Positions 31,701-63,980 of a stretch of 64,000 nt of DNA are shown here, piece after piece (the first letter of the stretch is position 1; every line of letters begins with the position of its first letter). Source of the stretch: Candidatus Enterousia sp. GTDB lineage: Bacteria > Pseudomonadota > Alphaproteobacteria > Rs-D84. The notes beneath the pieces were generated by a model that saw only the letters and a program-made list of their open reading frames with translations, made no database searches and had not been told where the DNA came from. The stretch is taken from contig JAZKZR010000010.1 in the NCBI GenBank assembly GCA_045612805.1, forward strand, positions 195,136-259,135, read 5' to 3'. The position numbers and the translations under genes were made by a program.

Positions 31701-34700
31701 ATTGCCAGGGATATTGTCAGACATCTGGATGTACAACGGGGCAAAATCATGTTATAGGGTGTGATTATATATCAGAATCATATACTGGGTTTATACATTG
31801 GCCGAATCCCATTAATGGTCAGTGTCCAAATTCTAATGGTGTTGTTCCATCATGTGATTATTGTGTTCGTTGCGAGGATGGTTGGGTTCAGGATCCTAAT
31901 AATTGTAAGCAGTGTATAGAAGATGCTCATTTTATTGTTACGTTGAATCCGCATTTGGTAAATAATACCCAGGGAAGTTACAGTAGTCCAAGGGCACTAT
32001 ATACATGGCATGGCAAGGGTGTTTATTTGTATGAGGACTATAGCCAATATCTGATGAACGGAAACCAAAATCCGCTTGTCAGTAATCCACAGACCTACGC
32101 GACCGTAACTTTTAACTTGAATGGTGACGGGGCTTGGCTTGATTGGGAAAATCAGCGCTATACAGATCCCGTGGATATAGACGTTCCACTTACTTATCTT
32201 GGATTCTATAAATCAGAAACCGATTCAGATATGGTTATAAACACTAATCGGTATATAGAACCCGCGGGTACGCAGGCCGGTAAAACCGCCACAGCTAATT
32301 TGGAATGGCATGCGCATTGGCAACCACGGCAAATAGGAACGGTAACAGGTTCTCAGCTTCCGCAACCGTCGCGTCCAGGATTCAATTTTGTCGGATGGTT
32401 TAATACATCTGCGTCCAATGGTGGCACTCAAATATATGCGACGACGGCGGCCGCCCAGAATATGACCGTGTATGCACGTTGGGAAAAGGCAAAATATTTC
32501 GTGAATTTGGATAAAAATGGTGGTCAATGGGGTTCTGATCCTGTATATAAGTTATGGGAATTGTATGGTACCGGTTGGTCCACAGAAGAAACTGGCCCAT
32601 TTGAACGTGATTTGGTTTTGGGTGAAAGTGAGCGTCCATCATATGTGGACAACAGCAAGGTGTTCAATGGTTATTGGACCGCCAGGAACAACGGCACCCA
32701 ACAGATCCGTGCCGATGGTTCCGTTGTCGATACGACCGCAACCGTACTTACCGTGAATAATACTACATGGTATGCACAATACGTCGATAATACAAATAAA
32801 TATACTATCACATTCAGGTGCAGCGAGAATGCATCCCCGATTCGCACATATCGTGTAAGTGGTGGTGAAAGTATAACTGTTCCGGCCAAATCAGAATGTC
32901 CGAACCCAGGTTATTCATTCACGAAATGGATGGGAAATCAAGGCACAAATTTCAATGCACGAGATAGTGAATATACAGTAATATGGGAAAGTTTTTCTGA
33001 TGCAGATTTTGTTCCAAATTGGAATAATGGGGATGTGTATCATGTGACATTACTTCAAAATGATGCGGATGCACCTGGTGAAGTACAGAATTTGTATGAA
33101 AAATACGCCAGTTGGTGGGCATTGGATCAGAATAATCAGTACCCGATGACATCGTTAAGTGGCGATCAATTGCCGACCAAAACAGGTTACGATTTCGCTG
33201 GGTTTAAAACCAGAATTGGGGGATATACAAGGGGTGATTTTGACTCTGAAAGTAATGTATGGGTACCACAGTCAAATAGAGAAATAACCAATGACGAAGA
33301 ATGGGTTCCTAAGTGGACACAATGCAAACCGTATTGGTATTATGATAACGTTCAAAAGATATGCAAGGAATGTCCAGCCCCATACACCAATAACGAACAT
33401 CCAGAATCGTTGGCGGATTGCTATGATGGTCGGTGCGAGCTGCGCTGTATTGAAAGCGCGATCGAATGTCCGACCGATCCAAATGCGATTGAATTTGAAT
33501 ACAGCAATGACGTATATTCGGGAACAAATTATTATCAAAATCATTGTGTGTTGGATATATGGGTACAACAGGGCGCTCAACAAGAAGTGATACCAAGTTG
33601 TGAATGCACAATAAAAACCTGTAAACCTGGCTATCACCCTGTCAATGGTGACTGTGTTGAGTATGTCAAGACGGATATTGTGCTTAGTCCAAACGGGGGT
33701 GCGTGGGCTTCAAATGTCCCGTACGAATATAGGTACCTTTACACAATCGAAAGTACCGGTGTGTATCGTAATTCTGCAAGGACAGAAGAAATGACACCCG
33801 ACAATAACATGCCTTTACATGCAATTCCGTCGAATGGCGTGTCGATAACACTTGATGCCAATGATGGAAGCGTGACATGGGGTGGCGGAACAGGTGAGAT
33901 TCTAAATCGTAACGCTGCATTTGAATTCCTCGGGTTCTATAATTCTCAAGCCCCGGGTTTTGCGGCACCGTATATACTGCCACGGGAAATAAACGGTGAA
34001 ACATATGCCTTTATCACCACTGGTGGGCAATCAGCTGGTATGGGATACACGACAACACCACATACATGGTATGCACAATGGAATCGGTCGGTTACATTAC
34101 CCACGCCGGAACGCCAGAATTATACGTTCGTTGGGTGGACGTATAACGGGGAGTTGATATCTAATCCTTGGACGGTGCCTGGGAACACCACGAACGTAAC
34201 CTTGATTGCACGATGGACCAAGAATAATGGCACCATTGTGGCATACAAGTGTGACGATGGTGATGGTGGTATTGGTGGCACTGGTTATGATACGCTACAT
34301 CCGGCATATTTTGGTGAAAATTATAATGTTTTGCCAAACGGAATTGTAAACGGGGGTGTTGTGAATTGTTCAAAGCCGGCCAATATAACCCTGGGAAGAA
34401 GATATCATGAATTTGAAGATTGGGTATTCAGTGATGATTATGCGCATTATGATCCAGGTGAAATCAATTGGACTTTTAACGTGGATAACCCGACATTTAC
34501 TGCGAACTATGAAGAATGTCCAAATGGGTGGTATTTTGATGGTTCGTGCAAACAGTGCCCGACTGGTTATACCAGTTCTGATATAGATGCAGATAGTGCA
34601 ACCAAGTGTTATAAAACGTGCGATGTTCCATGTACACGACCGACGTCACAGTGTCCTATGAATGAAGAGGGGGTTCTTACATGCACTTATCCTAATAACA

Positions 34701-37700
34701 CATATCCGCTTGGTAAACAATATAGTGGCAGTGATGATTGCGTATATGATGGAACCGCGCCTGCTTGCGAACCGTTCACAATCATGTGCAAACCTGATTA
34801 TACGCCAGATTACTATCTTAGCACGGATACCGGAACACATTGTACAAAATTGGATCAATATGAAATTACATTGGATCAGAATGGTGGTACGGGTGGACAA
34901 GATAAAATCTATACGATTTATAATACCGGCGTATACCGTGACGCAGGACGGATTTATAGTATGACACAATACCCATTGTTAAATTTGCCATCAAAGTCCG
35001 TTAACGTAACATTTAATTCTTGTGATAATAATGATCCAAATTGTGAAGGTGCAACTGTTTGGGAAAGACCGGTTGATCTGGAGTTCAAAGGATATTATCA
35101 AACTGCATCGAACAATTCGCAATACATATATGCAACTGGATTAATCACATCAACAGGTCTGGCCGAAGGTAAGTCATATACGGACAATAATCAAACTTGG
35201 TACGCTCAATGGAATTCTGGTACAGTTGACTCCGATAAATGGCCTTTGCCGCCAACACGTCCGAGTGCGTGCGCAACATACAGTTTCCATGATTGGTATA
35301 CCGAAATAAATGGTGGGACACCGGTTTCGTATAACACACAGGTATCCGAAGATGTGACATGGTACGCCCATTGGTGCGAAAGTTGCCCGACCAGGGCAAT
35401 AGACCACGGTTCGTGCACTGCGCAAAATTGCAAGGCCGAATTTAAGTGTGACGACGGGTACGATTGGAATTCGGGTAGTTGCACTTGCACCCCAACAACC
35501 GGATTGACCCTAACATATCAACCAAATGGTGGCGTTGCGCGCAACGGTGTTGAACTTGTGCAACAAATGACATTTGAACAATCATTTACAACACTTGGCG
35601 GAAATGATATTACCATGGCGGGCAATATAAATTGTAAATGGGATACGGTATCTGGTGGTCAATTCCCATTATTAGATCACGAATATACCTATAATCAAAA
35701 TGGTAATACCGTGTTAAAAGCCCATTGGGCAGCATGCACGTGCGAGGCGGGCAATGGTGTTCAATCTTGTTCCACAAACGTTATAGATAATACCTGTGTT
35801 CCAACCGTTACGTGTCAGGGCGGATATATCCCCGTTACACCATACGGAATCAGTGAGGAATGTGGTAATAAGGTCACTGTTAGCTGCACTAAATGCCCGG
35901 CCGGAACATATCAAAATGGTAACCAATGTTCACCATGCGATGGAAACACTGTGTCCGCGGCGGGCGCAACCCAGTGCGAACCGTGTGACCCCGGTTATAC
36001 CGCCAATGCGGAACATACACAATGCGTGGGTAACCCGATCACAATCAATTGGGATGAAAACGGCGGAAATGCAATACCTGATGGTTCTTGTGTATATGGT
36101 CAAACGTTTACGTTGGCGAATGCACCGGAGCACAGCAACAGGGCTATGCAATTCCTTGGGTGGAAATTGTTTACGGGTGATAGTACTTATCCGGCCGGGA
36201 CAAACGTAATGTGTACATATGACAATGTCGGTGTTTACAGTGAAACAAGTACCAAAATCCAGGCACAATGGAACGAATGCCAGTGTTCGGATCAATTGAA
36301 TCCGCATGTGGCGTGGTGTCAGGCATGGTTTGCAGACGGCGAATGTAAGTATATGAATGGATGTGATGCCGGATACGAACCTGATCCGTTAACGGTGTAT
36401 ACCCCGGCTGCGGTATGTAAACCGAAAAATTACAATATAACATATAACTGTGGTGATGGAATTGGCATCCCAGAATATCTGACAGACAGTGCCACATTCA
36501 ATGAAAATTATACTGTAAAGGGACGTGGCACCTGTCAAATGACTGGGTTCAACTTTGCGGGTTGGAAACTCAGTGCTAACAGCCAAACTTATCAACCAGG
36601 ATATAGGTTTGAACCGTGGAATTTCACACAACAAAATCCAACCTTTACCGCACAATATAGTCAATGCGCGGCTGGCGAGGTATGGGTAGATGGCGCATGC
36701 GAACCATGTACTTGCTCACAGGATAATTGGAGTTCTGGTGTCGCATCATGTACGGCAAGTCCATCGTCGATTAGCACCTGTTCTGCGGTTGTCACATGTG
36801 AAACAGGTTATAATAATCCGCAAGGGAATTGCGATGGTGCGACATGTTCGGCCCAGTGTGACCAGATTCAATCCAATGCCATTTATGAATGTGGAATTGG
36901 TGCAACGGGAACACCGCCGGCCACGGAAACGATGAACTATGGTGCGACACACACGGTCAAAGGCCAGACAAGTTGTGCCAAATCGGGTTATACCTTTAAC
37001 GGTTGGAATTTTACTGGGACAAATAAAAATTATAACCCCGGCGCAACGGTCCAATGGAATTATGGAACGGATCAAACCTTTACGGGGAATTGGTGCGAAA
37101 ATTGCGGCAATGTTGCAAACGGAACTTGTTCACTGAATGCAACCTTCGCTGGTTCTTGTTCGTATGATTGTTCTTGTGAACCTGGATATAGACTGGTTGG
37201 TGGTGTATGTACCGCGCACCCGGTATGCGAACCTGATGATTCATTAACAATCACATATCAGCCAAATGGTGGTATGAATAATGGCGTCCTTGGGCAACCG
37301 GTGATACAAAATGTCACATATGGTGCCGGGTTTATAACCAAACCGGGAACCATATTTACCAAGGAAAACAGTATTATCACCGCATGGGATCATGTCGAAG
37401 GTGGCAATTATCCAGAATTGAATCGTTGGTATGTGTATGATACCGATATTGACACCATATTGAGTGCACATTGGGAACAGTGCACATGCACTGCGGGCAA
37501 CGGCGTGTCATCTTGTACAACAAGTTCTACAAGTGAAAATGCTTGCGCTTGTGCTGGTGAATGTGCTGCTCGTTACATAAACGGCGGTTGTAGTTGCAAC
37601 GGAACAAGTACCTGCACGCAAACTTGTACGGAATGTCCGGCCGGGTACATATCAAATGCAGATCAAACAGAATGTGTTATTTGTCCAGAAAACACGTATC

Positions 37701-40081: not shown

Positions 40082-40924
40082 ATGAGTGGGGGGAGAATTC
40101 AGTTAAAAAAATCAAACCAAACGCCCAAGAATGATATTTTTGGGCGTCTTGGTGATTTTTCTGTTCGTATAATTCAATCCATTTATAACAATTGTAAATT
40201 TGTGTGTCGTGTCTTTCGCGCAATGTATTATGTATTGCGTGGGCGTGGTGACATGCGGCGTGTTGATTTATGGGTTGAAATTGATGCCGCGGGTCTGCGC
40301 GCGATTCCAATTGTATGTTTGATAAGTTTTATGATTGGTTTAATCATCGCGTTTGTTGGACATATGCAATTGGCAATGTTCGGTGCGGAAATTTATGTCG
40401 CGGCATTGGTTGCAATTTCCATGGTGCGTATTGTCGGCGCAATTATGACAGGAATAATTATGGCCGGCCGCACGGGTGCATCATATGCCGCGGAAATTGG
40501 TTCAATGCGCGCGAACGATGAAATCGATGCACTTAAAACCATGGGAATTTCGCCGATGGAATTTTTGGTTTTGCCACGTGTAATCGCATTAACCATAACT
40601 ATGCCATTACTAACCATAATCGCGGATGCGGTCGCCATATTGGGTGGCATGTGTGTTGCAATATCAATTATGAATGTTTCAATTGCGGAATATTGGCAAA
40701 CGACACTAAATTGGATAAGTTTCAAGAATTTTGCGGTAGGTGTTTTTCATGGATGGATTTTCGGTTGGGTAATCGCGATAACCGGATGTGCGTGTGGATT
40801 GCGTGCCGAAAAAAATGCGGCCGGAATAGGGCGGGCGACAACGCGCGCGGTGGTTATGGCGATTGTTGGGTGCGTTGTTGCGACGGCGATACTAACACTT
40901 GTTTTTAATTGGTTTGGAATATAA
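40082..40924 (+). CDS. mlaE: Mla/MCE ABC transporter permease
   Basis: Polytopic permease with the MlaE-type loop ...AAEIGSMRANDEIDALKTMGISP. It starts 12 bp after the giant gene's stop. Confidence 0.8.
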   Translation: MSGGRIQLKKSNQTPKNDIFGRLGDFSVRIIQSIYNNCKFVCRVFRAMYYVLRGRGDMRRVDLWVEIDAAGLRAIPIVCLISFMIGLIIAFVGHMQLAMFGAEIYVAALVAISMVRIVGAIMTGIIMAGRTGASYAAEIGSMRANDEIDALKTMGISPMEFLVLPRVIALTITMPLLTIIADAVAILGGMCVAISIMNVSIAEYWQTTLNWISFKNFAVGVFHGWIFGWVIAITGCACGLRAEKNAAGIGRATTRAVVMAIVGCVVATAILTLVFNWFGI

Positions 40925-41688
40925 TGCGAAAAAGTGAAAGAATTTTTATTAGTGTCGAAAATCTAACGCTGGGGTACGGCGGAAATGTCGTTGTGGAAAA
41001 ACTGAATTTTAATATAAACGCGGGCGACATTTTTGTAATTATGGGATTGTCGGGCTGTGGCAAAAGCACGATTATGCGTTCGATTGTTGGACTAAATAAA
41101 CCGATGTTGGGTCGTGTGATTGTGGGCGGCCAAGATTTATGGGCAATGTCGGAAAGTGCGCGCGAAAAAATAATTGAAACGTTTGGGGTGTCGTATCAAA
41201 GTGGCGCGTTGTTTTTATCAATGACCTTTGGTGAAAATGTTGCATTGCCAATGGAAATGAAAACAAATATGTCGCGTAAAGAGATAAATAAAGAAGTTCA
41301 CAAAAAACTTCAACTTGTTGGGCTTTCCGGATACGAAAATGTTTATCCCGCGGACGCAAGTGGCGGCATGATAAAACGTGCGGCACTTGCGCGGGCGCTT
41401 GCACTAAATCCGCGTGCACTCTTTTTCGATGAACCGTCGGCGGGACTTGACCCGGTGCGTTCGCGGCAATTGGATAATTTAATCGTGGAAATAAATAAAA
41501 AACTTGGCACGACGATTGTAATGGTGACACATGAATTGGCATCGATTCTGTCAATCGCAACAAATTCTGTTTATATTGGAAATAAAACTGTGCTTGCCAC
41601 CGGGGCACCGAAAAAGATTTTACAAACAACAAAAAACAAAGAGATTATCGAATTTCTAACACGTGAAACAAAGGGGGGCAAAAAATGA
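40924..41688 (+). CDS. mlaF: Mla/MCE ABC transporter ATP-binding protein
   Basis: Walker A GLSGCGKST, signature LSGGMIKRAALARALAL, Walker B LFFDEP. The ATG overlaps the mlaE stop (TAATG). Confidence 0.8.
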   Translation: MRKSERIFISVENLTLGYGGNVVVEKLNFNINAGDIFVIMGLSGCGKSTIMRSIVGLNKPMLGRVIVGGQDLWAMSESAREKIIETFGVSYQSGALFLSMTFGENVALPMEMKTNMSRKEINKEVHKKLQLVGLSGYENVYPADASGGMIKRAALARALALNPRALFFDEPSAGLDPVRSRQLDNLIVEINKKLGTTIVMVTHELASILSIATNSVYIGNKTVLATGAPKKILQTTKNKEIIEFLTRETKGGKK

Positions 41689-42461
41689 AACAACCATCGC
41701 GGCGCGCAATCGGCGGATTTATATTCTTGGTTATTTTAATTATTATCGGGACGGTTCTGTTCTTTTTCGGACGACGATTTGACCGTAATTATATAACGCC
41801 GGTTTTATTCTTTGAAGGTTCGGTCAAAGGCCTATCGGTTGGTTCAAATGTTTACTTTCGTGGCGTGCCGGTTGGACGTGTGGAAAAAATACAACTTATC
41901 CCGAATAACGAAGATAAAATTATTATCCCGGTTTATGTTCGCATCGATCCGCGTATGACGGCGCATGGCGAAATGTCGCGTTCGGAAATGGCGGGTTGGA
42001 TAAACGATTTGATACGGCACGGATTAAAGGGCAAATTGCAAACGCAAAATGTTTTAACCGGCCAAATGACAATCGAACTTGATTTTTATCCGAAATATCC
42101 ACCGCGTTTCCAGGCGGAAAAGTACGGAATCGAAGATATTGAAATCCCAACTGTGCCGTCGATGTTTGATGAAATTTCGCAAAACCTTGAAAAAATTCCG
42201 TTGTCAGATATATCAACAAACGTGAACGGCGTTTTGCAACAGTTGCACGACGATATGCCGGCACTGATGCGCCAATCGACCGAAGCGGTGGTTAGCATAA
42301 ATCGCCTTGCGGATTCGATTGCGGGGCCGGGCACGACAACGATGTCGGACTTTAACAAAATGATTCGCGACGTTAGCGAGGCCGCACGTGCGGTGTCGCG
42401 GCTTAGCGATTATTTGGAACGCCACCCAGAGGCATTATTAAAAGGAAAAGGAGGATATTAA
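41685..42461 (+). CDS. mlaD: MCE-domain periplasmic substrate-binding protein
   Basis: N-terminal TM helix followed by an MCE fold (…YFRGVPVGRVEKI…). It overlaps the mlaF stop. Confidence 0.75.
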   Translation: MKQPSRRAIGGFIFLVILIIIGTVLFFFGRRFDRNYITPVLFFEGSVKGLSVGSNVYFRGVPVGRVEKIQLIPNNEDKIIIPVYVRIDPRMTAHGEMSRSEMAGWINDLIRHGLKGKLQTQNVLTGQMTIELDFYPKYPPRFQAEKYGIEDIEIPTVPSMFDEISQNLEKIPLSDISTNVNGVLQQLHDDMPALMRQSTEAVVSINRLADSIAGPGTTTMSDFNKMIRDVSEAARAVSRLSDYLERHPEALLKGKGGY

Positions 42462-42462
42462 A

Positions 42463-43068
42463 ATGAAAAAATATATTTGTTTGATTGTTGCAACATTTGC
42501 GATTTCTGCCTGCACGCTTTGGCGGACCAGTGAACCCGCGCGGTTTTACACATTTACCGCGCCCGATGTGTCGCAAATTCGCGGGCCCGCACATGTGACA
42601 ACCGTTGCAATTGAAAATGTCACCGTGCCACAATCAATCAACCGTCCGCAAATTGTTATGAAATACAAAAATTCGAACATGATGATGGTGTCTGAATTTG
42701 ACCGTTGGATTGATGAACCCGCGAATTCGTTACCGGTTGTGATTTCTGAAAATATGAATATGTACGCAAAAAACATTAGCGCGCGACCAACAAAAAATTC
42801 AGTTGAGGCGCGTAACGCAAAATACATTTTGGCGGTGGACTTTGTCCGGTTTGAAACAGAAATCAATGGCAAAATCACAATATCGGCATGGTGGACACTA
42901 ACCAACAATCGTGGTGATATAGTCGCACAAAAGAAAATGACACAAACCGCGGACACACCGGAACTGGACGCAAGTTATCCAAACTATGACGCAATCGTCG
43001 CGGCGCAGAGTAAATTGCTTGCACGCCTGTCATATAAAATCGCCGACGTGATAAGTGAATTGAAATAA
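42463..43068 (+). CDS. PqiC/YmbA-like ABC-transport auxiliary lipoprotein
   Basis: Lipobox FAISAC. About 200 aa, directly after the MCE gene (1-bp spacing). Confidence 0.6.
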   Translation: MKKYICLIVATFAISACTLWRTSEPARFYTFTAPDVSQIRGPAHVTTVAIENVTVPQSINRPQIVMKYKNSNMMMVSEFDRWIDEPANSLPVVISENMNMYAKNISARPTKNSVEARNAKYILAVDFVRFETEINGKITISAWWTLTNNRGDIVAQKKMTQTADTPELDASYPNYDAIVAAQSKLLARLSYKIADVISELK

Positions 43069-55345: not shown

Positions 55346-55861
55346 TCACAAATTCAATGCGTAAATTCCGTTTTCATATATGTTTAGTTCAACTTCGCGT
55401 CGGCGAATAAGGCCTGCGCTCACATGGCCGCCAGTTTTGTTCCATGCCCGCCACGCCGCGCCCAGATTAAAGTATCGCGCGCTTTTGAAATTCGGATTGT
55501 TTATATATTTTACAACCGTCGAATTTGCAAAATTCCGCGCGCCAATGTTAAAGCACAGCATTACCAACGCATCAAATTGATTTTGCCGCAGGTTAGTCGT
55601 TATTGCGTTGCATACCGCGTGTTCTGCCACCGACAAATCACCACGCAAAATTTTCGTTGCCGCATCTTCATCGATTCCGTCACGAAAATCTTCGCCTGGT
55701 TTAATCAAATGCCCATATCCAATCGTTGCGCCGGCTGGCAGTGGCGCGCCCGCCGCAATCGGTTGCCCGTTTTTATCGTCGTATATAACATGCCGGCCAT
55801 TACGCATGACGCGGCCTTCGCACTGTTTCAATGTGCGAATGCCATTATCACTTAGTTTCAT
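55346..55861 (-). CDS. Phage-type lysozyme (GH24, P22 gp19 / T4 lysozyme-like)
   Basis: MKLSDNGIRTLKQCEGRV...TIGYGH...NQFDALVMLCFNIG pattern, with the catalytic Glu in the CEGR context. Confidence 0.8.
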   Translation of the reverse strand: MKLSDNGIRTLKQCEGRVMRNGRHVIYDDKNGQPIAAGAPLPAGATIGYGHLIKPGEDFRDGIDEDAATKILRGDLSVAEHAVCNAITTNLRQNQFDALVMLCFNIGARNFANSTVVKYINNPNFKSARYFNLGAAWRAWNKTGGHVSAGLIRRREVELNIYENGIYALNL

Positions 55862-56435: not shown

Positions 56436-59400
56436 ATGAAAAAATTGTGTGCAACAATTGCTTTTACGGTTTATACATTGGCCGTGGCGTTTGCGGGCAC
56501 GGCATTTGCAGAAACAAATTGCACTGGTTGGTCATACTATGATTCCGTGTCGGAAACCTGTGTCACATGTGAAAATTCTGGTTTTACAATTACCACGTCC
56601 AGTTTGGCGGCAAATACGAACTTTTGGTTCACCATGTCCCCAAAGGGCAGTTTTGCGGTTGATTGGGGCGATGGCACCATAGATAACATTGATCGTGATA
56701 ATACAACCGTAACGGATTATTCGCATACATATACAAACGGTGGGGTGAAAACAATTAAGTTTTGTGGTCGGGCAACAGAATATAATTCCGCCGGTGGTGA
56801 CAGTGTTGTTGCGGCAATATCGTTTTATAAAAACGATTCAACTAATACATCTAAATGGATTACGTCCGTATCCGGATCAATGGGTTCAATGTTCCCAACC
56901 ATATCTGATACCCCTGCGGGCCAGCCACGTTTCCGCAGTACATTCCAAGGTGCCAGCAGCTTAACAACGATATCGGCAAACTTGTTCAGTGGTGTGTCGG
57001 GTTCGGCGGAAGGTATGTTCCGTTCAACATTTGATAAAAGCGGGTTAAAGGCGATACCATACGGATTGTTTGCCGGTATAACGGGTGGTGCCTCAAATAT
57101 GTTTCGTTCAACATTTTACCAGTGCCGGGGGTTAACATCACTGCCGGATGATTTATTCGCCGGAATTACGGTCGCCGCCCAGGATGAATTTAGGTTCACT
57201 TTTTACCAGGCAAGTAGTTTATCGGGCGAATATATCCCGGCAAGTGCGTTTATTGGGTTGGTAAATGCGGGTTCCCCACAACCGGAAACTGGCAGCATGT
57301 GGTATCAAACATTTGATGGAACCGGTTTATTAAAAGCATGTCCGTCGCGGACACACCCGTTCATTACTGGCTACGAAGGGGAAACCGCAAGTGTCACATG
57401 GAACGGGTATGTGGCTTGTCAACCAGATAATCCGTGTAAGGGGGCGGAATATTGGGATTCAACGAACGAGGTTTGCGTTCCATGTCCCGGCGACTATGTT
57501 TATGATATGAAAAATACCAAGATATCGATTAACGAATGTAAAATTCAGTGTTCTGCCGGAACATATTTGGCGAATGCGGGTGATTTGACTTGTACCAATG
57601 CGGGGGTTGGTTATTACGCGATGGGCGGTGTGTTCAGTTATGGTCAATCCAGTACACGTACCCAATGTCCGGATAATATGCCGACAATAAATAATACCAC
57701 CACCGCATCCGATGTTGAACAATGTGTTGTGCGTTGTCGTGGCATACAATATCGCAATCCAAATAATTTATGTGTTGATTGTCCACCGGGATACGATGAC
57801 GATGATACGGACGGCAAAAATGCAATTACCGACTGTAAAATTCTTTGTGATGGCGGAACATATTTGCCAACGGCGAATGCGTCATCGTGTGAAGATGTTG
57901 GTGACGGTTATTGGTCGGTGGCAACAACGGTCGCATATGGTTCAACCGTATCGCGCAACAAATGTCCAATTGGTCAAACGACTGGTATGACCAATGCATC
58001 CAGTGCATCACAGTGTAGGGAAGCATTATGTACCGGTGCAACATATCGTGATTCTGTGACGGGGGAATGTATATCGTGCCCAATTGGATACGATGCGCAT
58101 ACGGTATCCGGTAAAACATCAATAAGTGAATGCCAGATTCATTGTTATGCCGGGACATATATTGCAAATGCGAATGATACAGTATGCACCAATGTTGGTG
58201 ATGGATACTATGCGGCGGCATCCGATGTAAATTACGGTTCAACTGGTTCGCGTGGTCAATGTCCATCCGGTCAATTAACGGGAACACAAACCGCGGCCAG
58301 TTCTTCACAGTGTAAAACATCATGCCTGGGTGTGCAATATTACGATTCTGCAACGGGGGCTTGTAAAAATTGCCCAACTGGATATACTGATAACCCCGCA
58401 GACGGCAAGAATAACATTAACCAGTGCCAGGCCTATTGTGCGGGGGGGACAGTTTTTGCGACATACACGCCACTTGAATATTTACAGAGCAGAAACGGAA
58501 ACCAATTTATTGATACTGGATATGGGGTCACAAGTGACCACGTAAATGGAACCGTGGTGATAGAAAATCTTGAAGTAATAACTAATCCTTCGCAATATGA
58601 TTCGGGTAATTTCTTTGGGAATTTATATGGACAAGGTGGATTTAGTTCTGGGTGGAAAAAGAATGTTTTTGGTGTATGGCTGCAGAAAACAAATGGTGGT
58701 GGTGCAAAGGCGCAGTATTCTGCCCCATTGAATCAGAATCAAGTATATACGATAAAATATGATATTACTTTGACGCTTGGAAATAATGGTAAGAAGAGTG
58801 GTGTTCCAAAGATTACTGTTGATAATAATAGTCCAAAAACGGCGAATGTACCAGATGTGTCGATTAATTATGAAGGAAATACGATAAAATTATTTACGAA
58901 CGGCAGTGCGTTTAAAAACGGCAATTCAATTGAACTTCCAAATGGTGATAAAATATTTGGTGGACGCATGTATTCAATGCAATTGTATGACAACGGTGTG
59001 TTGAAATTAGACCTGATTCCTGCACGACGCGAATCAGACGGTGAATTGGGTATGTATAATCGTGTTGACGGTGATTTTTATGTGAATGCTGGGTTTGATA
59101 CCTTTATTGCCGGTGCTGATAGCGGCGATCCATTTGGTTCGTGTGGTCCTGTGGGTAATGGATACTATATTGGCGCAACTTATACGAATTATGGAACGGT
59201 TGGAACACGTAGTAAATGTCCAAATGGTGCGCCAACTATGGAAAATAATAAAATTATAAATAATGCCAGCAGTATTTACCAGTGTGGTGGTGTTGAACCA
59301 TGCGAAGGTGCGATGTACCCGGATCCGGGTACCGGTATATGTACACTGTGTCCAACGAATTATATTTCTAATACACAAAATGGGAAAGAATCTATCTATG

Positions 59401-60125
59401 AATGTCAAATACATTGTGAACCAGGAACATATTTGGCAAATGCCAACGATGCGTCGTGCATAAATGTTGGTAATGGCTATTATACAGACGACAGTTTGAT
59501 AAATTGGGGCGATGTTGGAACGCGTACGCGTTGTCCAAATGGTGGTGTCACGAACATGACAAATGCCGCCACCGCTGATGCATGTGTGCCCATTGGCACG
59601 TGCAGTGGCGCAACATATATGAATTCTGGCACATGTGAACCATGTCCAACCGGATACACCGCCAATACGATAAATGGTAAAACGGCGGCAACCGATTGCC
59701 AAATGGTCTGTCCGGTGGGTTCGTATTTAGCAATGGCAAACGCAACAACATGTACCGATGCGGGTGCGGGTTATTGGGCAACGGGTGGCGTGGTAAATTA
59801 TGGTTCAACCAGTATAAAGAACGCCTGTGCAACGGGACTTACCACCGTTGGATATGGACACGGTGCGGATGAAGCGTCGGATTGTGGGCGTAAATTACAC
59901 CTTGGGGACTTTATATTATACACCAAAACAACAAAACCGACATTGCCCGCAATAAATGTTCGGGTTGAAAACGATAGCACAACACATTATATCGGGGTCA
60001 GTGATACGGACCAAACATTAACCCCAATTCATGTGACCCAGGGTGAAACACAATATACCGCCTTTGACGACAGTATTTTATACAGCGAACGTGATTTGGA
60101 AACCAACACGCGTATTACACAATAA
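56436..60125 (+). CDS. Large secreted Cys-rich repeat protein: N-terminal surface-protein short repeats (DUF285-like), seven roughly 100-aa CxxCPxGY modules, and a central predicted jelly-roll module
   Basis: Signal peptide MKKLCATIAFTVYTLAVAFAGTAFA. Repeats MFRSTF...GL..IP.GLFAGIT. The module C.G..Y.D...G.C..CP.GY.....GK..I..CQI.C..GTY.ANAND..C.NVG.GYY...NYGS...R..CP.G occurs seven times. The frame is open from 56421. Confidence 0.85.
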   Translation: MKKLCATIAFTVYTLAVAFAGTAFAETNCTGWSYYDSVSETCVTCENSGFTITTSSLAANTNFWFTMSPKGSFAVDWGDGTIDNIDRDNTTVTDYSHTYTNGGVKTIKFCGRATEYNSAGGDSVVAAISFYKNDSTNTSKWITSVSGSMGSMFPTISDTPAGQPRFRSTFQGASSLTTISANLFSGVSGSAEGMFRSTFDKSGLKAIPYGLFAGITGGASNMFRSTFYQCRGLTSLPDDLFAGITVAAQDEFRFTFYQASSLSGEYIPASAFIGLVNAGSPQPETGSMWYQTFDGTGLLKACPSRTHPFITGYEGETASVTWNGYVACQPDNPCKGAEYWDSTNEVCVPCPGDYVYDMKNTKISINECKIQCSAGTYLANAGDLTCTNAGVGYYAMGGVFSYGQSSTRTQCPDNMPTINNTTTASDVEQCVVRCRGIQYRNPNNLCVDCPPGYDDDDTDGKNAITDCKILCDGGTYLPTANASSCEDVGDGYWSVATTVAYGSTVSRNKCPIGQTTGMTNASSASQCREALCTGATYRDSVTGECISCPIGYDAHTVSGKTSISECQIHCYAGTYIANANDTVCTNVGDGYYAAASDVNYGSTGSRGQCPSGQLTGTQTAASSSQCKTSCLGVQYYDSATGACKNCPTGYTDNPADGKNNINQCQAYCAGGTVFATYTPLEYLQSRNGNQFIDTGYGVTSDHVNGTVVIENLEVITNPSQYDSGNFFGNLYGQGGFSSGWKKNVFGVWLQKTNGGGAKAQYSAPLNQNQVYTIKYDITLTLGNNGKKSGVPKITVDNNSPKTANVPDVSINYEGNTIKLFTNGSAFKNGNSIELPNGDKIFGGRMYSMQLYDNGVLKLDLIPARRESDGELGMYNRVDGDFYVNAGFDTFIAGADSGDPFGSCGPVGNGYYIGATYTNYGTVGTRSKCPNGAPTMENNKIINNASSIYQCGGVEPCEGAMYPDPGTGICTLCPTNYISNTQNGKESIYECQIHCEPGTYLANANDASCINVGNGYYTDDSLINWGDVGTRTRCPNGGVTNMTNAATADACVPIGTCSGATYMNSGTCEPCPTGYTANTINGKTAATDCQMVCPVGSYLAMANATTCTDAGAGYWATGGVVNYGSTSIKNACATGLTTVGYGHGADEASDCGRKLHLGDFILYTKTTKPTLPAINVRVENDSTTHYIGVSDTDQTLTPIHVTQGETQYTAFDDSILYSERDLETNTRITQ

Positions 60126-60227: not shown

Positions 60228-61166
60228 TTAATCAACCCCGTATCCCATTTGACCGGTCCCAGCGGGATAATACAGTTTTTTGTCAACGGTATCCCACATA
60301 CAATTTGTTTGTGCCATGTGTCCGCAAACATTTGTGCCAGCGGGAACGGGTTCAAAATCGTGTACCAACGTCCCTGATGTATCATATAATTTAATATAAT
60401 ACAATTTCATACCACCACTGTCTGTTTGGTCAAGCGAACTATTACTAATCAAATTATTTTTAAATATTTTTATCGTATCTGATGTTGAACATGAACCAAA
60501 CGTACGTGTTATTGTGCTTTTGTATACTCCATCGATATAATATTTAATACCCTTTTTTGTGGAATTTTGGTTTTCTGTTACAAATCTTAATAATTTTTTA
60601 CTGTTTGCTTCATTAAAATTTGTGGCTGAAGCCGAATTGGTAGATCCAAATCTAAACTGGGCACGACGTTTATGATCCAATGTCAGATCAAACCAACACG
60701 ATGAACTGTTTGTACCAAATATACGCGCACTTTTACCGTTTACAATTTTCACCTGAACATCAAGATTATATGAAGGGTTTACCGCAACACCCGTATCAAA
60801 CCACTGGTTCCCATCGGACAATAAATATGCATTTGGGGTCAGTGTTGGACCGGTGCATTCCGGGTCGGTTATAACAATCGGGTCACCCGGTTCTTCGGGC
60901 ATAACCCATGTGCCGCCACCACATTCACCATCACATATTGTATAAACGGTGCCATTTGCATTAACATGTAACGAATCCGCCGCCCACGTAGTGGTTGCAG
61001 GGGCGCAATACGTATTATTGCCAACCATAACTTTTAATTTGTGATCCGTGCTACACGAATTTTGTAAAGTGATAGAATGGTTTCCAATGCGCAAAACCTG
61101 TCCCATCGCCATACATGCGTATGTCGATATACCCAGTAATAAAAATACTCTCCCGTATCGCATCAC
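60228..61166 (-). CDS. Secreted protein that shares the jelly-roll-like module with the convergent 56436-60125 gene
   Basis: Signal peptide. YLLSDGNQWFDTGV...LYDTSGTLVHDFEPV...YYPAGTG aligns with EYLQSRNGNQFIDTGYGV...LYDNGVLKLDLIP...FYVNAGFD in the neighbouring gene. Confidence 0.7.
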   Translation of the reverse strand: MMRYGRVFLLLGISTYACMAMGQVLRIGNHSITLQNSCSTDHKLKVMVGNNTYCAPATTTWAADSLHVNANGTVYTICDGECGGGTWVMPEEPGDPIVITDPECTGPTLTPNAYLLSDGNQWFDTGVAVNPSYNLDVQVKIVNGKSARIFGTNSSSCWFDLTLDHKRRAQFRFGSTNSASATNFNEANSKKLLRFVTENQNSTKKGIKYYIDGVYKSTITRTFGSCSTSDTIKIFKNNLISNSSLDQTDSGGMKLYYIKLYDTSGTLVHDFEPVPAGTNVCGHMAQTNCMWDTVDKKLYYPAGTGQMGYGVD

Positions 61167-61282: not shown

Positions 61283-61576
61283 TTATTCAAACCAAATTAC
61301 CGCACGGGTATTGCTTGACGTGCTGCCCACGGGAATTGTCACTTCACTTTTGGTAACGGTCACGGTTCCATTGCTTGCGGTAACACTGCTCACTATGGGA
61401 CCCGTCCCCGATTCAACAACATTTGTTGATGTTAATTTATCTTGTTTTACCGCATCCATTGTGTTATATGCTCCTTCGACATACGACCTTGTTACCACTT
61501 TTGTATTGGGTGTAACCTCGGCAAAAACCGGTGCAGTCAAGAAAATTCCGATAAAGATGCATAAAACCTTCTTCAT
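61283..61576 (-). CDS. Small secreted Thr/Ser/Val-rich protein (first of four tandem genes)
   Basis: Signal peptide MKKVLCIFIGIFLTAPVFA. Mature N-terminus PNTKVVTRSYVEGAYN. Confidence 0.55.
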   Translation of the reverse strand: MKKVLCIFIGIFLTAPVFAEVTPNTKVVTRSYVEGAYNTMDAVKQDKLTSTNVVESGTGPIVSSVTASNGTVTVTKSEVTIPVGSTSSNTRAVIWFE

Positions 61577-61653
61577 TTCGTAAATCTACCTGAACAATTA
61601 TGTTGTATAAAAATACAATCATAATTGCCCAGATATAAATTTATTTGTTTTTA

Positions 61654-62520
61654 TTACGGTTGTGTTGGGGCTGTTAATGTCACTTCTTGGTTTGTATCCG
61701 TATTCCAAGTTGTGTACACTTTCAACACTTTCGCACTTTGGGTATCAGCAGCAGTTTTTAATTCATTGATAGCAGCTGTTACCGTTTGTGCTGTCGTTTG
61801 CAAACCAGTATTACCAACTATTCCTTCCAAAGCATCTGCGTCTGCTTGTGCAGCATTTGCAGCAGATTGTGCAGTAGCGGCATTGGTTATACCTGTTTGT
61901 GCAGCGGTCATCGCAGCATTGGCAGCGGCCGCAGCGGATGCTTTTTGTGCTTCAGTAAAATGCGTATCTGTTAACGCTGCCGCAGTACCAGCAAAACCCG
62001 CTGCAGTATTAACTTCATTGATAGCACCAACTAAAGAATTTTTTTCTGTTGTTGTTAAATTATTTAAAACACCAACGCTTGTTTCCAACGCATCAACTTC
62101 GGATTGTGCAGTGGCGGCATTGGTTATACCTGTTTGTGCAGCGGTCATCGCAGCATTGGCAGCGGCCGCAGCGGATGCTTTTTGTGCTTCAGTAAAATGC
62201 GTATCTGTTAACGCTGCCGCAGTACCAGCAAAACCCGCTGCGGTATTAACTTCATTGATAGCACCAACTAAAGAATTTTTTTCTGTAGTTGTCAATGTTG
62301 TTAAATCACCTTCGGCTGCTTTTGCACGGGCATTTTCTGCGTTTGCAACTGCAACTGCGGCATTATATGCACCACGAACAAATGATGTTGATGCAACATT
62401 AGTGTTTGGGGTTGCATCCACTGGTTCCGCCGGAACTGTACCGATTGTCGGTGTTGCGTTCGCCGCCATTGGTAAAATCGCCAAAGCCGCGATTACCGAT
62501 ATGTTTAAGATTTTTTTCAT
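61654..62520 (-). CDS. Secreted Ala/Thr-rich fibrous protein with an internal 79-aa tandem duplication
   Basis: Signal peptide MKKILNISVIAALAILPMAANA. PNTNVASTSFVRGAYN. The 63-aa block TTEKNSLVGAINEVN...ITNAATAQS occurs twice within a 79-aa unit. The antisense ORF at 61625-62719 is rejected. Confidence 0.7.
   Translation of the reverse strand: MKKILNISVIAALAILPMAANATPTIGTVPAEPVDATPNTNVASTSFVRGAYNAAVAVANAENARAKAAEGDLTTLTTTEKNSLVGAINEVNTAAGFAGTAAALTDTHFTEAQKASAAAAANAAMTAAQTGITNAATAQSEVDALETSVGVLNNLTTTEKNSLVGAINEVNTAAGFAGTAAALTDTHFTEAQKASAAAAANAAMTAAQTGITNAATAQSAANAAQADADALEGIVGNTGLQTTAQTVTAAINELKTAADTQSAKVLKVYTTWNTDTNQEVTLTAPTQP
61865..62307. repeat. Near-perfect tandem duplication (237-bp period, about 200 bp per copy, 2 mismatches) inside gene 61654-62520
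   Basis: gattgtgcagt(a/g)gcggcattggttatacctgtttgtgcagcggtcatcgcagcattggcagcggccgcagcggatgc... occurs at 61865 and at 62102. Confidence 0.8.
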
Positions 62521-62618
62521 TCTCTTTCTCCTTGTTTGTTTTTGGTTTACCTGTGCGCATTATATCATAATAAAAAATTTTTTTGAACAATATAATGCAC
62601 TGTTTTTAATTTTTTTTT

Positions 62619-63194
62619 TTAGTTACCACTCAACACGTTATTTTCAAATGCTTCTGCACTCCATGTGGATTCTACCTCCATCGCCTGCCATGTTCCAGCA
62701 CCGTAGGCATCGGTTTTGAAAACATATGTTGTGTTCGCAGATGTGGTCACATCCAACCCGATTGTCGATGGGTTATCGCCGGTTCCTGGTGTGACCTTGA
62801 CACCGGTTCCCGCGGTGTAACCATTGGAATTTTCCAAATCGGTCACCCGTTTTACCAAACCACTGGTTGAATCACCGACTGTCGATTGCAAACTTTGAAC
62901 GGCACCCTTCAAACCGGTCCCCGGCGTGTTGCCTTCACCCACGGTTCCAATATCACCGACCAATCCGGTCGCCGGATCGTTACCACTTGCGGGTGCACCA
63001 ACAATGTTTTGCAAACTTTTTACCGCACCATCCGATATTCCACTTGCAACCTTGTACACGTATTTCAACCCGTCATCCACGTATCCCTTGGTTGTTAATG
63101 CCGCAGAACTGGCATCCGGAACCGGGTCCGCGTATGCGCCGATTGAAATCATCGATACTGATGCAATCAAACCATACAAAAAGTTTCTTTTCAT
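62619..63194 (-). CDS. Secreted Gly/Thr-rich protein in the same four-gene cluster
   Basis: Signal peptide MKRNFLYGLIASVSMISIGAYA. Mature N-terminus contains ALTTKGYVDDGLKYVYK. Confidence 0.6.
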   Translation of the reverse strand: MKRNFLYGLIASVSMISIGAYADPVPDASSAALTTKGYVDDGLKYVYKVASGISDGAVKSLQNIVGAPASGNDPATGLVGDIGTVGEGNTPGTGLKGAVQSLQSTVGDSTSGLVKRVTDLENSNGYTAGTGVKVTPGTGDNPSTIGLDVTTSANTTYVFKTDAYGAGTWQAMEVESTWSAEAFENNVLSGN

Positions 63195-63245
63195 TTCTAT
63201 CGTTCCTCCTTTTTTTTGTTAGTTTTTTTGTTTGTCTCTCTCGCC

Positions 63246-63980
63246 CTATGGTTGACCTTGGGTGCCACCGGTTTGACCATCATGCAAAAAACTGGGGTCA
63301 AATACCTTTACAACCTTTGCATTGGCCAAGTCGCCTACAATCTGGTCAACGTATTGTTTGGTATAATAATTATTTTGCAGATATGTTTTTGTTTGGTCAA
63401 TCGTATAATACTTTGTGACATCAACAAAGTCGGTTAAGTTGCCTATTTGTTGTTCCATTTCGGCAACCTTGTCCGGCAAAATCGCGATTTCTTCGGTCAC
63501 GCCGATTATGTTGCCGGTAATATCAATCCCATCGCCCGGTTCCAATGTTTCCTGTTTTGTTGTCATTTGGTCTTCCAACGCTGCAACCCGATTCGTTAAA
63601 TCGGACACATCTGTATTCGCACCACCGGACGGTGTTGTGTTATTTGACGGAATTTTTGAACTTATGCTTTTTACAATATTGCCATGAAGCCCCGACAACC
63701 GCATAGAATTCGCAGAACCCAATGTTGTTGACGTGGTAGTGCCCGAAACATTTGCACCACTGGTCGCCACGTTCTTCGGGCTAAGGTATGACCCCGATGT
63801 CCGTATGGATGATGCCCGCGTCGTGGTTGTTTTCGGGGGAACAACATTGTTGATTTGTGTGCCACCTGTATTTGTTGCGCCCAACCTTTTTACCGTCGGC
63901 GCCCCCACCGCCGGATACGTCAAAACACCCGTCGATACCAACGAAAACGCCAAAAACAATACGTTTCGATATAACATCAT
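63246..63980 (-). CDS. Secreted coiled-coil protein in the same four-gene cluster
   Basis: Signal peptide MMLYRNVLFLAFSLVSTGVLTYPAVGA. Ser/Thr-rich linker, predicted coiled coil ...RVAALEDQMTTKQETLE..., C-terminal TKQYVDQIVGDL. Confidence 0.6.
   Translation of the reverse strand: MMLYRNVLFLAFSLVSTGVLTYPAVGAPTVKRLGATNTGGTQINNVVPPKTTTTRASSIRTSGSYLSPKNVATSGANVSGTTTSTTLGSANSMRLSGLHGNIVKSISSKIPSNNTTPSGGANTDVSDLTNRVAALEDQMTTKQETLEPGDGIDITGNIIGVTEEIAILPDKVAEMEQQIGNLTDFVDVTKYYTIDQTKTYLQNNYYTKQYVDQIVGDLANAKVVKVFDPSFLHDGQTGGTQGQP

Follow-up and report, generated by a model that had tools for sequence, protein, structure and literature searches.

The open reading frame at positions 56436 to 60125 of the forward strand, within the 64,000-nucleotide stretch of DNA from the uncultured gut or rumen bacterium Candidatus Enterousia analyzed here (the window), encodes a 1,229-residue protein that we lean toward reading as a rod-shaped adhesin, located on or retained at the cell surface and carrying two animal-like binding parts, an LRR domain and a laminin-G-like (LamG) domain, on a disulfide-laddered stalk. 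Such an adhesin would most likely mediate sticking to a partner cell. The type of protein that had originally been predicted, a disulfide-type, cysteine-rich repeat protein secreted through the Sec pathway, is supported by its 56 cysteines, its signal peptide and the invariance of the cysteines in its modules.

The reading frame itself is genuine, as had been proposed: its ATG at 56436 agrees with the MKK... start found in all orthologues of the alignment. Approximately 30 full-length orthologues, with 59 to 95% identity, were found, and dN/dS was about 0.2, both overall and in each domain, such that selection on the gene is purifying, though relaxed. When the gene was compared with its counterpart in one related genome (L003), nucleotide identity was 72 to 77% in the part encoding residues 121 to 240 and 98 to 99% in that encoding residues 661 to 780; these mosaic alleles point to recombination between alleles. 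Mosaicism of this kind is typical of exposed surface proteins. The C-terminal domain is among the best-conserved parts of the protein and the LamG domain is the least conserved. Whole-protein scans of the 1,229-residue sequence against Pfam, NCBIfam and PHROGs gave no match, nor did a sequence-profile search of the PDB with the full-length alignment (E ≤ 1), and all matches of the protein itself to named families stayed below the curated thresholds. A scan for promoters and terminators yielded no signal above shuffled expectation. The features distinguished along the protein are listed in Table 1.

Table 1. Features of the 1,229-residue protein and their positions in the window
Feature	Residues	Coordinates	Strand	Basis or remark
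Sec (SPase I-type) signal peptide	1-25	56436..56510	+	Read from sequence
N-terminal Cys hairpin, C..Y......C..C	29-45	56520..56570	+	Like the first hairpin of the module
PKD-like beta-sandwich	~50-148	56583..56879	+	AlphaFold2 all-beta; F.VDWGDG....HTY motif
Predicted LRR solenoid with Cys-containing C-terminal cap	~149-300 (cap, 301-333)	56880..57434	+	
Cys modules M1-M3	334-433, 434-531, 532-629	57435..58322	+	Module profile
M4, N-terminal half (Cys 1-5)	630-671	58323..58448	+	Profile iE 1.6e-14
Predicted laminin-G/LNS/pentraxin-fold beta-sandwich	672-902	58449..59141	+	Nested inside M4
M4, C-terminal half (Cys 6-8)	903-955	59142..59300	+	Profile iE 6.8e-12
Cys modules M5 and M6	956-1055, 1056-1150	59301..59885	+	Module profile
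Conserved C-terminal domain	~1131-1229	59826..60122	+	Domain profile; overlaps the end of M6

The bulk of the protein downstream of its N-terminal region is built from Cys modules of about 98 residues with eight cysteines each, the regularity of which was borne out by a profile constructed from 126 orthologous modules (iE of 2e-36, 5e-35, 2e-39, 1.4e-37 and 6.9e-32 for M1, M2, M3, M5 and M6, respectively) and by the finding that all eight cysteines are invariant across 21 orthologues; because of this invariance, we infer that they form disulfides. Six modules are present, five intact and one split, rather than the seven originally counted: the short hairpin near the N terminus reached an iE of only 0.13 with the module profile, although its cysteines are near-invariant in orthologues. 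Each module consists of four predicted G.Y beta-hairpins, modeled by AlphaFold2 as short paired strands with pLDDT values of about 84 to 95 (M1 to M3) and 83 to 96 (M5 and M6). The modules are thus confidently predicted to be ordered. According to the original prediction, a lack of repeat-family matches combined with predicted disorder would speak against its reading; the former half of this was observed for the DUF285 family discussed below, and the combination does not apply to the Cys modules.

As to the relationship of these modules to ephrin-like units (PF07699), which had been suggested, the family as a whole supported it and the protein taken by itself stayed below the cutoff. No match to PF07699 was obtained with the whole protein at E ≤ 0.1, and its single modules scored 15.3 to 20.9 bits (16.6 to 20.9 bits for M1 to M3) against a gathering cutoff of 23.1; at the same E value limit, however, 31 of 35 modules from the family matched (best E, 4.2e-7), and one relative (P0113) passed the cutoff with 26.3 bits. 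Structure and profile comparisons with the PDB gave a nonsignificant best Foldseek match for the modules, the Cys-rich ectodomain of ELAPOR1 (E = 0.048), and, with the module alignment, osteoprotegerin as the sole sequence-profile match (E = 0.36). Judging from these sequence similarities, the modules appear to be kin to the ephrin-receptor-like/TNFR-like kind at the superfamily level. The 8-Cys module family comprises 612 cluster representatives among 1.84 billion, with up to 35 modules per protein in relatives, and documents a compact 8-Cys super-module of seemingly ephrin-receptor-like kind in bacteria.

A nonrepetitive region of roughly 210 residues had been thought to split the row of modules. 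A distinct region is indeed there, of about 234 residues (669 to 902), but it lies inside M4, between the fifth and sixth cysteines, and not between modules: positions 1 to 49 of the module profile align with residues 630 to 678, and the profile resumes with positions 52 to 96 at residues 902 to 951. The predicted structure of this insert is a jelly-roll beta-sandwich that can be superposed on LG/LNS domains, with a sequence identity to laminin-G/LNS/pentraxin domains of 7 to 15%. No match to Pfam Laminin_G_1/2/3 was found in the protein, and a relative (P0050) scored 23.3 bits with the Pfam LamG profile, under the cutoff of 27.6. The composite of M4 and its nested domain recurs in 13 other proteins and provides a clean case of a predicted LamG domain nested within an ephrin-receptor-like Cys module.

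Upstream of the modules, the protein starts with a Sec-type signal peptide, in line with the original prediction, consisting of MKK, a hydrophobic core and a probable cleavage site between AFA and E; the AFA-E/D junction is kept in the orthologue alignment, and no lipobox was seen on reading the signal peptide. The PKD-like region that follows is all-beta in the AlphaFold2 model (pLDDT, 92 to 97) and contains a VDWGDG motif. While neither PF00801 nor PF18911 matched the protein itself, homologous segments of two relatives (P0032 and P0038) passed the Pfam PKD profile PF00801 with 28 to 32 bits, the cutoff being 23.5.

The next stretch holds, at residues 165 to 300, four to five repeats of 28 to 30 residues each (MFRSTF..(C)..L..IP..LFAGI), which had been described as DUF285-like short repeats of a surface-protein type. 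The surface-protein type is upheld, as the repeats are, by their predicted fold, of the LRR kind: the modeled curved solenoid is structurally similar to solved LRR domains. Membership in DUF285 (PF03382) or TIGR02167 is not, since searches of Pfam and NCBIfam returned no match to either with the whole protein or its N-terminal 310 residues (E ≤ 10) or with 36 relatives (E ≤ 0.1). Likewise, LRR_5 (PF13306; cutoff, 27.7 bits) did not match the protein and was found at E ≤ 0.1 in one of the 36 relatives; on the equivalent stretch, P0042 passed with 37.2 bits and P0088 remained just under the cutoff with 27.4 bits. The nearest sequence family of the repeats is the BspA-type LRR_5, seen in few relatives only.

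At the opposite end, the C-terminal domain has a core of six predicted beta-strands (CGRKLH.G..LY.K..KPT.PAINI..YY.GVS...L.P.HV...QYTAFDDS; pLDDT, 68 to 81). Its profile was found in 43 of 120 homologues, including some of other architectures, and in all 43 clear cases the domain ran up to the C terminus or stopped no more than about 20 residues short of it. It is also present in secreted proteins of about 190 residues. A profile search of a 5.8-billion-protein index returned short proteins only, probably an effect of candidate selection by which long carriers are underreported. When 23 diverse copies were compared with Pfam and NCBIfam, no family emerged consistently, known sorting and anchor families (T9SS CTD, autotransporter barrel, LPXTG, PEP-CTERM and the like) included, and DUF7063 was rejected as its identity (1 of 23 members, E = 0.04). 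No secretion or assembly genes were found near the gene for a small protein with this domain (L008), and no secretion-system genes near the gene studied here. What we document is an unclassified C-terminal domain common to a set of secreted proteins.

The window also encodes a second, giant Cys-containing secreted protein, to whose units the modules had been called paralogous. This could not be sustained: the module profile did not match the giant protein at E ≤ 10, and with filters off, only CxxCP hairpins of about 30 residues were matched and the whole-sequence score was negative. We therefore ruled out paralogy, generic CxxCP hairpins being all that the two have in common. Nor does the gene lie in an accessory region, as had been proposed. 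Its synteny is conserved across the genus, in each of the seven related genomes (L001 to L007), which argues against its being on an island, and the GC content at the locus is unremarkable; together, these findings led us to reject a genomic island. There is one syntenic copy per genome, to which only L004 adds a second, truncated one, and the variable elements near the gene are limited to a lysozyme/HTH pair and a neighboring 312-residue reading frame. The tRNA and the lysozyme that were said to bound the region are both on the same (upstream) side of the gene.

Genes in the window for an AMIN-domain amidase and the Mla system show that the cell has two membranes. Its nearest genomic relatives are rumen MAGs and Candidatus Enterousia. 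Members of this genus (order Rs-D84) have genomes of 0.75 to 1.0 Mb, lack the tricarboxylic acid cycle, respiration and standard transporters and have been proposed to be obligate symbionts or parasites depending on a partner not named to date; together with other Rs-D84 bacteria, whose genomes of below 1 Mb likewise encode neither central metabolism nor standard transporters, they are common in livestock guts (PMC12306168).

Taken as an adhesin, the protein would cross the inner membrane via the Sec pathway, as its signal peptide suggests, and its six 8-Cys modules would fold in the periplasm into a stiff, protease-resistant stalk with a predicted hairpin fold and a ladder of putative disulfides. 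This stalk would carry two binding devices: the N-terminal head, made up of the PKD-like and LRR domains, and a lectin-like domain of the laminin-G/pentraxin type that buds sideways from M4, its ends probably pinned by the Cys5-Cys6 pair of that module. Given the roles of these folds elsewhere, both devices, the LRR head as well as the LamG domain, may recognize proteins or glycans displayed by the partner cell or present on host material, and recombination between alleles would shuffle the binding segments. The C-terminal beta-domain may hold the protein on the envelope of the bacterium itself or be recognized by an export or assembly machine, as suggested by the strict confinement of this domain to the C terminus and its recurrence among other secreted proteins. 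The strongly reducing conditions of the rumen count against the stability of the 28 putative extracellular disulfides in the adhesin reading.

Part of the evidence would also suit a soluble, secreted binding factor that acts at a distance, by capturing nutrients, glycans or host molecules or by bridging cells, with the C-terminal domain as a binding or oligomerization module; we regard this as possible, if rather unlikely. The Sec signal peptide is accompanied by no recognizable anchor, lipobox, beta-barrel or transmembrane segment, and many LamG/pentraxin proteins are soluble. Additionally, the 312-residue neighbor may carry a copy of the C-terminal domain at its N terminus, which would argue against a purely positional sorting signal, but that match is statistically weak (HMM iE = 0.03) and is opposed by the terminal position of the domain in every one of the 43 clear cases. 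The overall architecture, in which a distal head, a long rigid stalk and a conserved terminal domain follow one another, is that of a displayed adhesin.

We give somewhat less credence still to a variable protective coat, comparable to the CxxC-rich ones of gut protists such as Giardia (VSP/HCMP) and ciliates (surface antigens). The Cys modules would then serve mainly to build a tightly packed shell resistant to proteases, and the role of mosaic recombination would be antigenic or phage-receptor variation instead of the binding of ligands. The Cys-rich, CxxC-bearing character of the family in an anaerobic gut or rumen bacterium, the relatives with up to 35 modules, the mosaic alleles under relaxed but purifying selection, the giant protein in the same window and a weak VSP match in the C-terminal region of one relative (E = 0.025) are all in keeping with such a coat. 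Nevertheless, a single syntenic copy per genome (the truncated one in L004 aside) is not the large family that switching would call for, dedicated LRR and LamG folds point to specific ligands, and the VSP match was not significant. The lysozyme nearby, which is of phage type, raised the question of whether the gene had been carried along with it as a tail-fiber-like, receptor-binding protein of phage or prophage origin. This we consider very improbable and largely refuted: the protein has no PHROG match, a tblastn search of 50,697 phage records with its LamG domain gave no hit, no phage structural genes lie nearby, virion proteins do not usually carry a Sec signal peptide, and the gene keeps its chromosomal place in L004 and L007, both of which lack the lysozyme and the HTH gene.

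Returning to the surface adhesin, the 3.7-kb gene and the nearby 20-kb giant gene amount to about 2.7% of a 0.9-Mb genome. Because the gene is conserved, under selection, accounts for part of this sizeable genome share and encodes two predicted binding folds on a rigid stalk, it is among the best candidates for contact with the partner, and its LRR and LamG domains, produced in recombinant form, could serve as baits for the partner cell. More tentatively, we speculate that the protein and its relatives might define a hitherto undescribed surface-display system of reduced-genome Alphaproteobacteria of the Rs-D84 type, in which the C-terminal beta-domain, itself new, would serve as a sorting or anchoring tag for eukaryote-like, disulfide-laddered adhesins ranging from 190 residues to 35 modules and recombining LRR and LamG tips would set which partner cell is parasitized.

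Among known systems, LRR adhesins of the internalin and BspA types (Listeria InlA/InlB; Bacteroides/Tannerella LRR_5, PDB 4fs7) come close. The Enterousia repeat differs from theirs in its length of 28 to 30 residues, its MF..TF signature and its score under the LRR_5 threshold, and the stalk consists of ephrin-receptor-like Cys modules instead of Ig-like or B repeats; the protein has no LPXTG, GW or other known anchor, and its host is a diderm alphaproteobacterium. DUF285/TIGR02167 proteins of Mollicutes and Listeria likewise have repeats of about 26 to 30 residues with a periodic MF/F signature and are secreted by host-associated bacteria, yet their profiles do not match the Enterousia repeats. 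DUF285 belongs to the LRR clan of Pfam. With the eukaryotic PF07699 repeats, ELAPOR1 and TNFR (osteoprotegerin), the Cys modules share C..CP.G.Y motifs with regular Cys spacing and, by prediction, ladders of beta-hairpins; unlike those repeats, they fuse four predicted hairpins into a fixed super-module of 98 residues and eight cysteines that forms a restricted family of its own in a bacterial host, with all matches of the protein itself below threshold. The LamG/LNS/pentraxin domains of extracellular proteins rich in EGF modules (neurexins, laminin alpha, agrin and PTX3) are another close parallel, except that the Enterousia domain interrupts a Cys module and is not flanked by modules. Finally, the VSP/HCMP proteins of Giardia and the surface antigens of ciliates resemble the Enterousia protein in being Cys-rich, periodic and extracellular in anaerobic gut organisms; the latter has neither a transmembrane anchor nor a CRGKA tail and, in contrast to them, is encoded by a single-copy, syntenic gene whose product carries predicted LRR and LamG domains.

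The open reading frame of the target, a Cys-rich secreted protein, runs on the + strand from an ATG at 56436 to a stop codon at 60123-60125 and encodes 1229 aa, as the original prediction had it (56436-60125); 56 residues (4.6%) are cysteines. A TTG five codons 5' of this ATG is a possible alternative, but since all orthologues begin with MKK.., 56436 was retained as the start. As read from the sequence, aa 1 to 25 resemble a Sec signal peptide (MKK, hydrophobic core, AFA↓E), and the N-terminal region contains no lipobox. The full-length protein found no sequence match in Pfam, NCBIfam, PHROGs, or PDB, and its scores stay below the curated sequence cut-offs of all named families. Two AlphaFold2 models, computed from alignments of orthologues plus relatives, reached pLDDT values of 91.2 (aa 26-630) and 88.0 (aa 620-1229), and the predicted disorder that would have spoken against the original prediction was therefore not found. 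Features of the locus and the protein are listed below.

Features in the window and parts of the target protein
Feature	Position	Strand	Remarks
Giant secreted ORF, 6788 aa, 339 Cys	19703..40069	+	Flg_new repeats, scattered CxxCP hairpins
AccD-AccA fusion, 580 aa	52937..54679	+	acetyl-CoA carboxylase carboxyltransferase beta and alpha subunits fused
Phage-type lysozyme	55346..55861	-	PF00959, endolysin PHROGs; just upstream of target
Xre-like HTH gene, 79 aa	56092..56331	+	just upstream of target
312-aa secreted ORF	60228..61166	-	adjoins target, downstream
Four small signal-peptide proteins (97, 288, 191, 244 aa)	61283..63980	-	downstream of target
N-terminal cassette	aa about 45-333 of target		most widespread part of protein
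C-terminal domain	aa about 1131-1229 of target		profile and AlphaFold2

Many other proteins carry the N-terminal cassette in two to five tandem copies. An all-beta structure is predicted for the first about 100 aa of the cassette (F.VDWGDG...HTY), and the corresponding stretch of relatives scores above the Pfam PKD threshold. Four to five 28- to 30-aa repeats, with the signature (M)F(R)(S)TF..(C)..L..IP..LF.G(I), occupy aa 165 to 300. The DUF285/TIGR02167 short repeats expected here were absent from the target at E<=10 and from 36 relatives at E<=0.1. Equivalent cassette stretches of three relatives match BspA-type LRR_5, and for the target repeats themselves an LRR fold is predicted with good confidence from the model, below the curated sequence threshold.

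A profile built from the Cys modules of 21 orthologues and run against the window matched exclusively within the target ORF. It recovered five intact modules (iE 7e-32 to 2e-39), a sixth, divided copy (profile positions 1-49 at aa 630-678 and 52-96 at aa 902-951), and a weak N-terminal half-hairpin (iE 0.13); the modules are thus as regular as had been claimed but number six, not seven. Each spans about 98 aa, with eight Cys invariant in 21/21 aligned orthologues. Their proposed ephrin-like character held at superfamily level: every target module scores 15 to 21 bits against PF07699 (Ephrin_rec_like), below the cut-off of 23.1, whereas 31 of 35 modules from diverse orthologues match at E<=0.1 (best, 4.2e-7); 18 of the 35 match NCD3G. 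The best Foldseek match in the PDB, the ELAPOR1 ectodomain, was not significant (E 0.048), and a PDB sequence search returned osteoprotegerin as sole match (E 0.36). Within the ephrin-receptor/TNFR-like hairpin-ladder superfamily, these modules form a probable bacterial offshoot in which four G.Y hairpins are fixed into a 98-aa unit; modeling predicts with good confidence that they are ordered. Among 1.84 billion cluster representatives searched exhaustively, 612 proteins matched the profile at E<=1e-3 and 324 at <=1e-10, some over up to 35 stretches per protein; the sole named member comes from an Alphaproteobacteria MAG.

Paralogy with units of the giant protein, also part of the original prediction, was ruled out: the module profile gave no match in the giant at E<=10, filter-off alignment was confined to 20- to 60-aa C..Y...C..CP.GY hairpins with a negative whole-sequence score, and tblastn gave E 0.66. 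Judged by sequence, the two have no paralogous modules in common, only a generic motif of the hairpin kind. Pfam finds Flg_new (Listeria-Bacteroides) repeats and one weak TNFR_ELAPOR1 match in the giant, which is directly followed by an Mla operon (40082..43068). Giant and target together take up about 24 kb of an about 0.9-Mb genome.

The central module, thought to split the Cys modules from each other, is an insertion of roughly 234 aa (aa 669-902) inside module 4, between its fifth and sixth Cys, as the profile positions on either side demonstrate. A LamG fold is predicted for it with good confidence from the model, again below the curated sequence threshold; one relative's copy matches Laminin_G_3 just below threshold. 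The composite of split module plus LamG recurs in at least 13 other proteins. In the adjoining 312-aa ORF, the C-terminal two-thirds show homology to this domain (blastp 3e-5), which is the least conserved among orthologues (mean pairwise identity 0.53 versus 0.63 to 0.73 elsewhere, excluding signal peptide and short N-terminal hairpin).

The C-terminal domain was found by profile in 43 of the 120 homologues listed and in all 43 it reaches the C terminus or stops no more than about 20 residues short of it. Its carriers include proteins lacking the Cys-module/LamG part and a family of secreted proteins of about 190 aa whose only other parts are a signal peptide and a short Cys hairpin (P0148, P0153, P0167, P0172, and P0135 among the relatives). 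No Pfam family matches it consistently, and AlphaFold2 gives six short strands (pLDDT 68-81). The N terminus of the 312-aa ORF weakly resembles it (HMM iE 0.03). On the contig of a more distant relative, a ~190-aa carrier ends a same-strand run of hypothetical genes (L008:8001-8609), and an AccD-AccA fusion is also present (L008:10347-12083).

Metagenome assemblies contain about 30 full-length homologues (59-95% identity), and the seven genome loci with the gene (L001 to L007) all belong to rumen "RUG" MAGs or Candidatus Enterousia; relative to these, dN/dS is about 0.2 in each domain. Within single genome pairs, synonymous divergence and nucleotide identity change sharply along the gene. Compared with L003, identity is 72-77% at aa 121-240 and 98-99% at aa 661-780 and 1021-1140, 60-residue blocks of the two kinds adjoining in this one pair; compared with L001, it is 96-100%, save two 60-residue windows at 84-85%. 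Such unevenness indicates that the alleles are mosaics from intragenic recombination. Divergence is also decoupled from that of the flanking AccDA (target 92% versus AccDA 88% in L007; 88% versus 95% in L003), which, with the mosaic identity, suggests that members of the genus exchange alleles.

The gene had been assigned to an accessory region bounded by a tRNA and a phage lysozyme. The locus reads AccD-AccA fusion, tRNA-Ser, 86-aa ORF, target, and four small secreted proteins on the opposite strand, and this order is maintained in L001 to L007. Lysozyme and Xre-like HTH form a variable pair (in L001 and L003, missing from L004 and L007) with no further phage genes nearby, and GC content is unremarkable. 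Variable slots thus flank the target, which is itself a core gene in syntenic position, and we ruled out genomic-island cargo on the basis of gene order and GC. The 312-aa ORF, found in the window and L005 only, is such a slot; in L004, it holds a truncated target paralogue (L004:14628-16520). The four small proteins, kept in 7/7 related loci, may be surface fibrils; in the 288-aa one, which matches a tail-fibre PHROG (E 6.8e-9), a stretch of about 66 aa is perfectly duplicated in tandem (..TTEKNSLVGAINEV..).

Candidatus Enterousia is placed in the uncultured order Rs-D84 (NCBI: Alphaproteobacteria incertae sedis). Its MAGs measure 0.75 to 1.0 Mb and lack a TCA cycle, a respiratory chain, and standard sugar, amino-acid, or peptide transporters; glycolysis is incomplete, and an obligate symbiont or parasite lifestyle has been proposed (PMC12306168). 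Since genes for an Mla system and for an AMIN-domain amidase lie in the window, the cell is diderm.

While the gene, its conservation, its domain order, and the nesting are demonstrated here, the mechanism is proposed. Although the habitat is highly reducing, the invariant Cys would form disulfides and yield a stiff stalk, and the Cys5-Cys6 pair of module 4 would pin the base of the LamG insert. To judge by what such folds do in Slit, internalins, BspA, neurexins, laminins, and pentraxins, LRR head and LamG domain would be the parts that bind ligands. The C-domain, conserved and without exception terminal, would serve envelope retention or act as an address to an export or assembly machine. 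Because of the proposed partner-dependent lifestyle, we favor the reading that the protein is a surface adhesin by which the cell contacts a partner or host, with a slightly better than even chance of being right. That the protein is instead released as a soluble binding factor seems unlikely, and a protective or variable coat in the style of protists somewhat more so. A receptor-binding protein of phage origin is highly improbable: the target has no PHROG or phage-database match, and synteny persists without the lysozyme.

As a candidate surface adhesin, the protein offers a concrete, testable handle on the attachment partner of Enterousia. Its single folds are familiar; what is new is the 98-aa, 8-Cys super-module as a restricted family, the reusable unit with LamG nested in a module, a C-terminal domain outside existing classification, and the occurrence of such a toolkit in a gut alphaproteobacterium with a sub-1-Mb genome. 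In function, this bacterial multidomain protein would resemble internalin/BspA-type LRR adhesins, and its composition is like that of animal extracellular proteins in which Cys-rich modules and LamG domains occur together.
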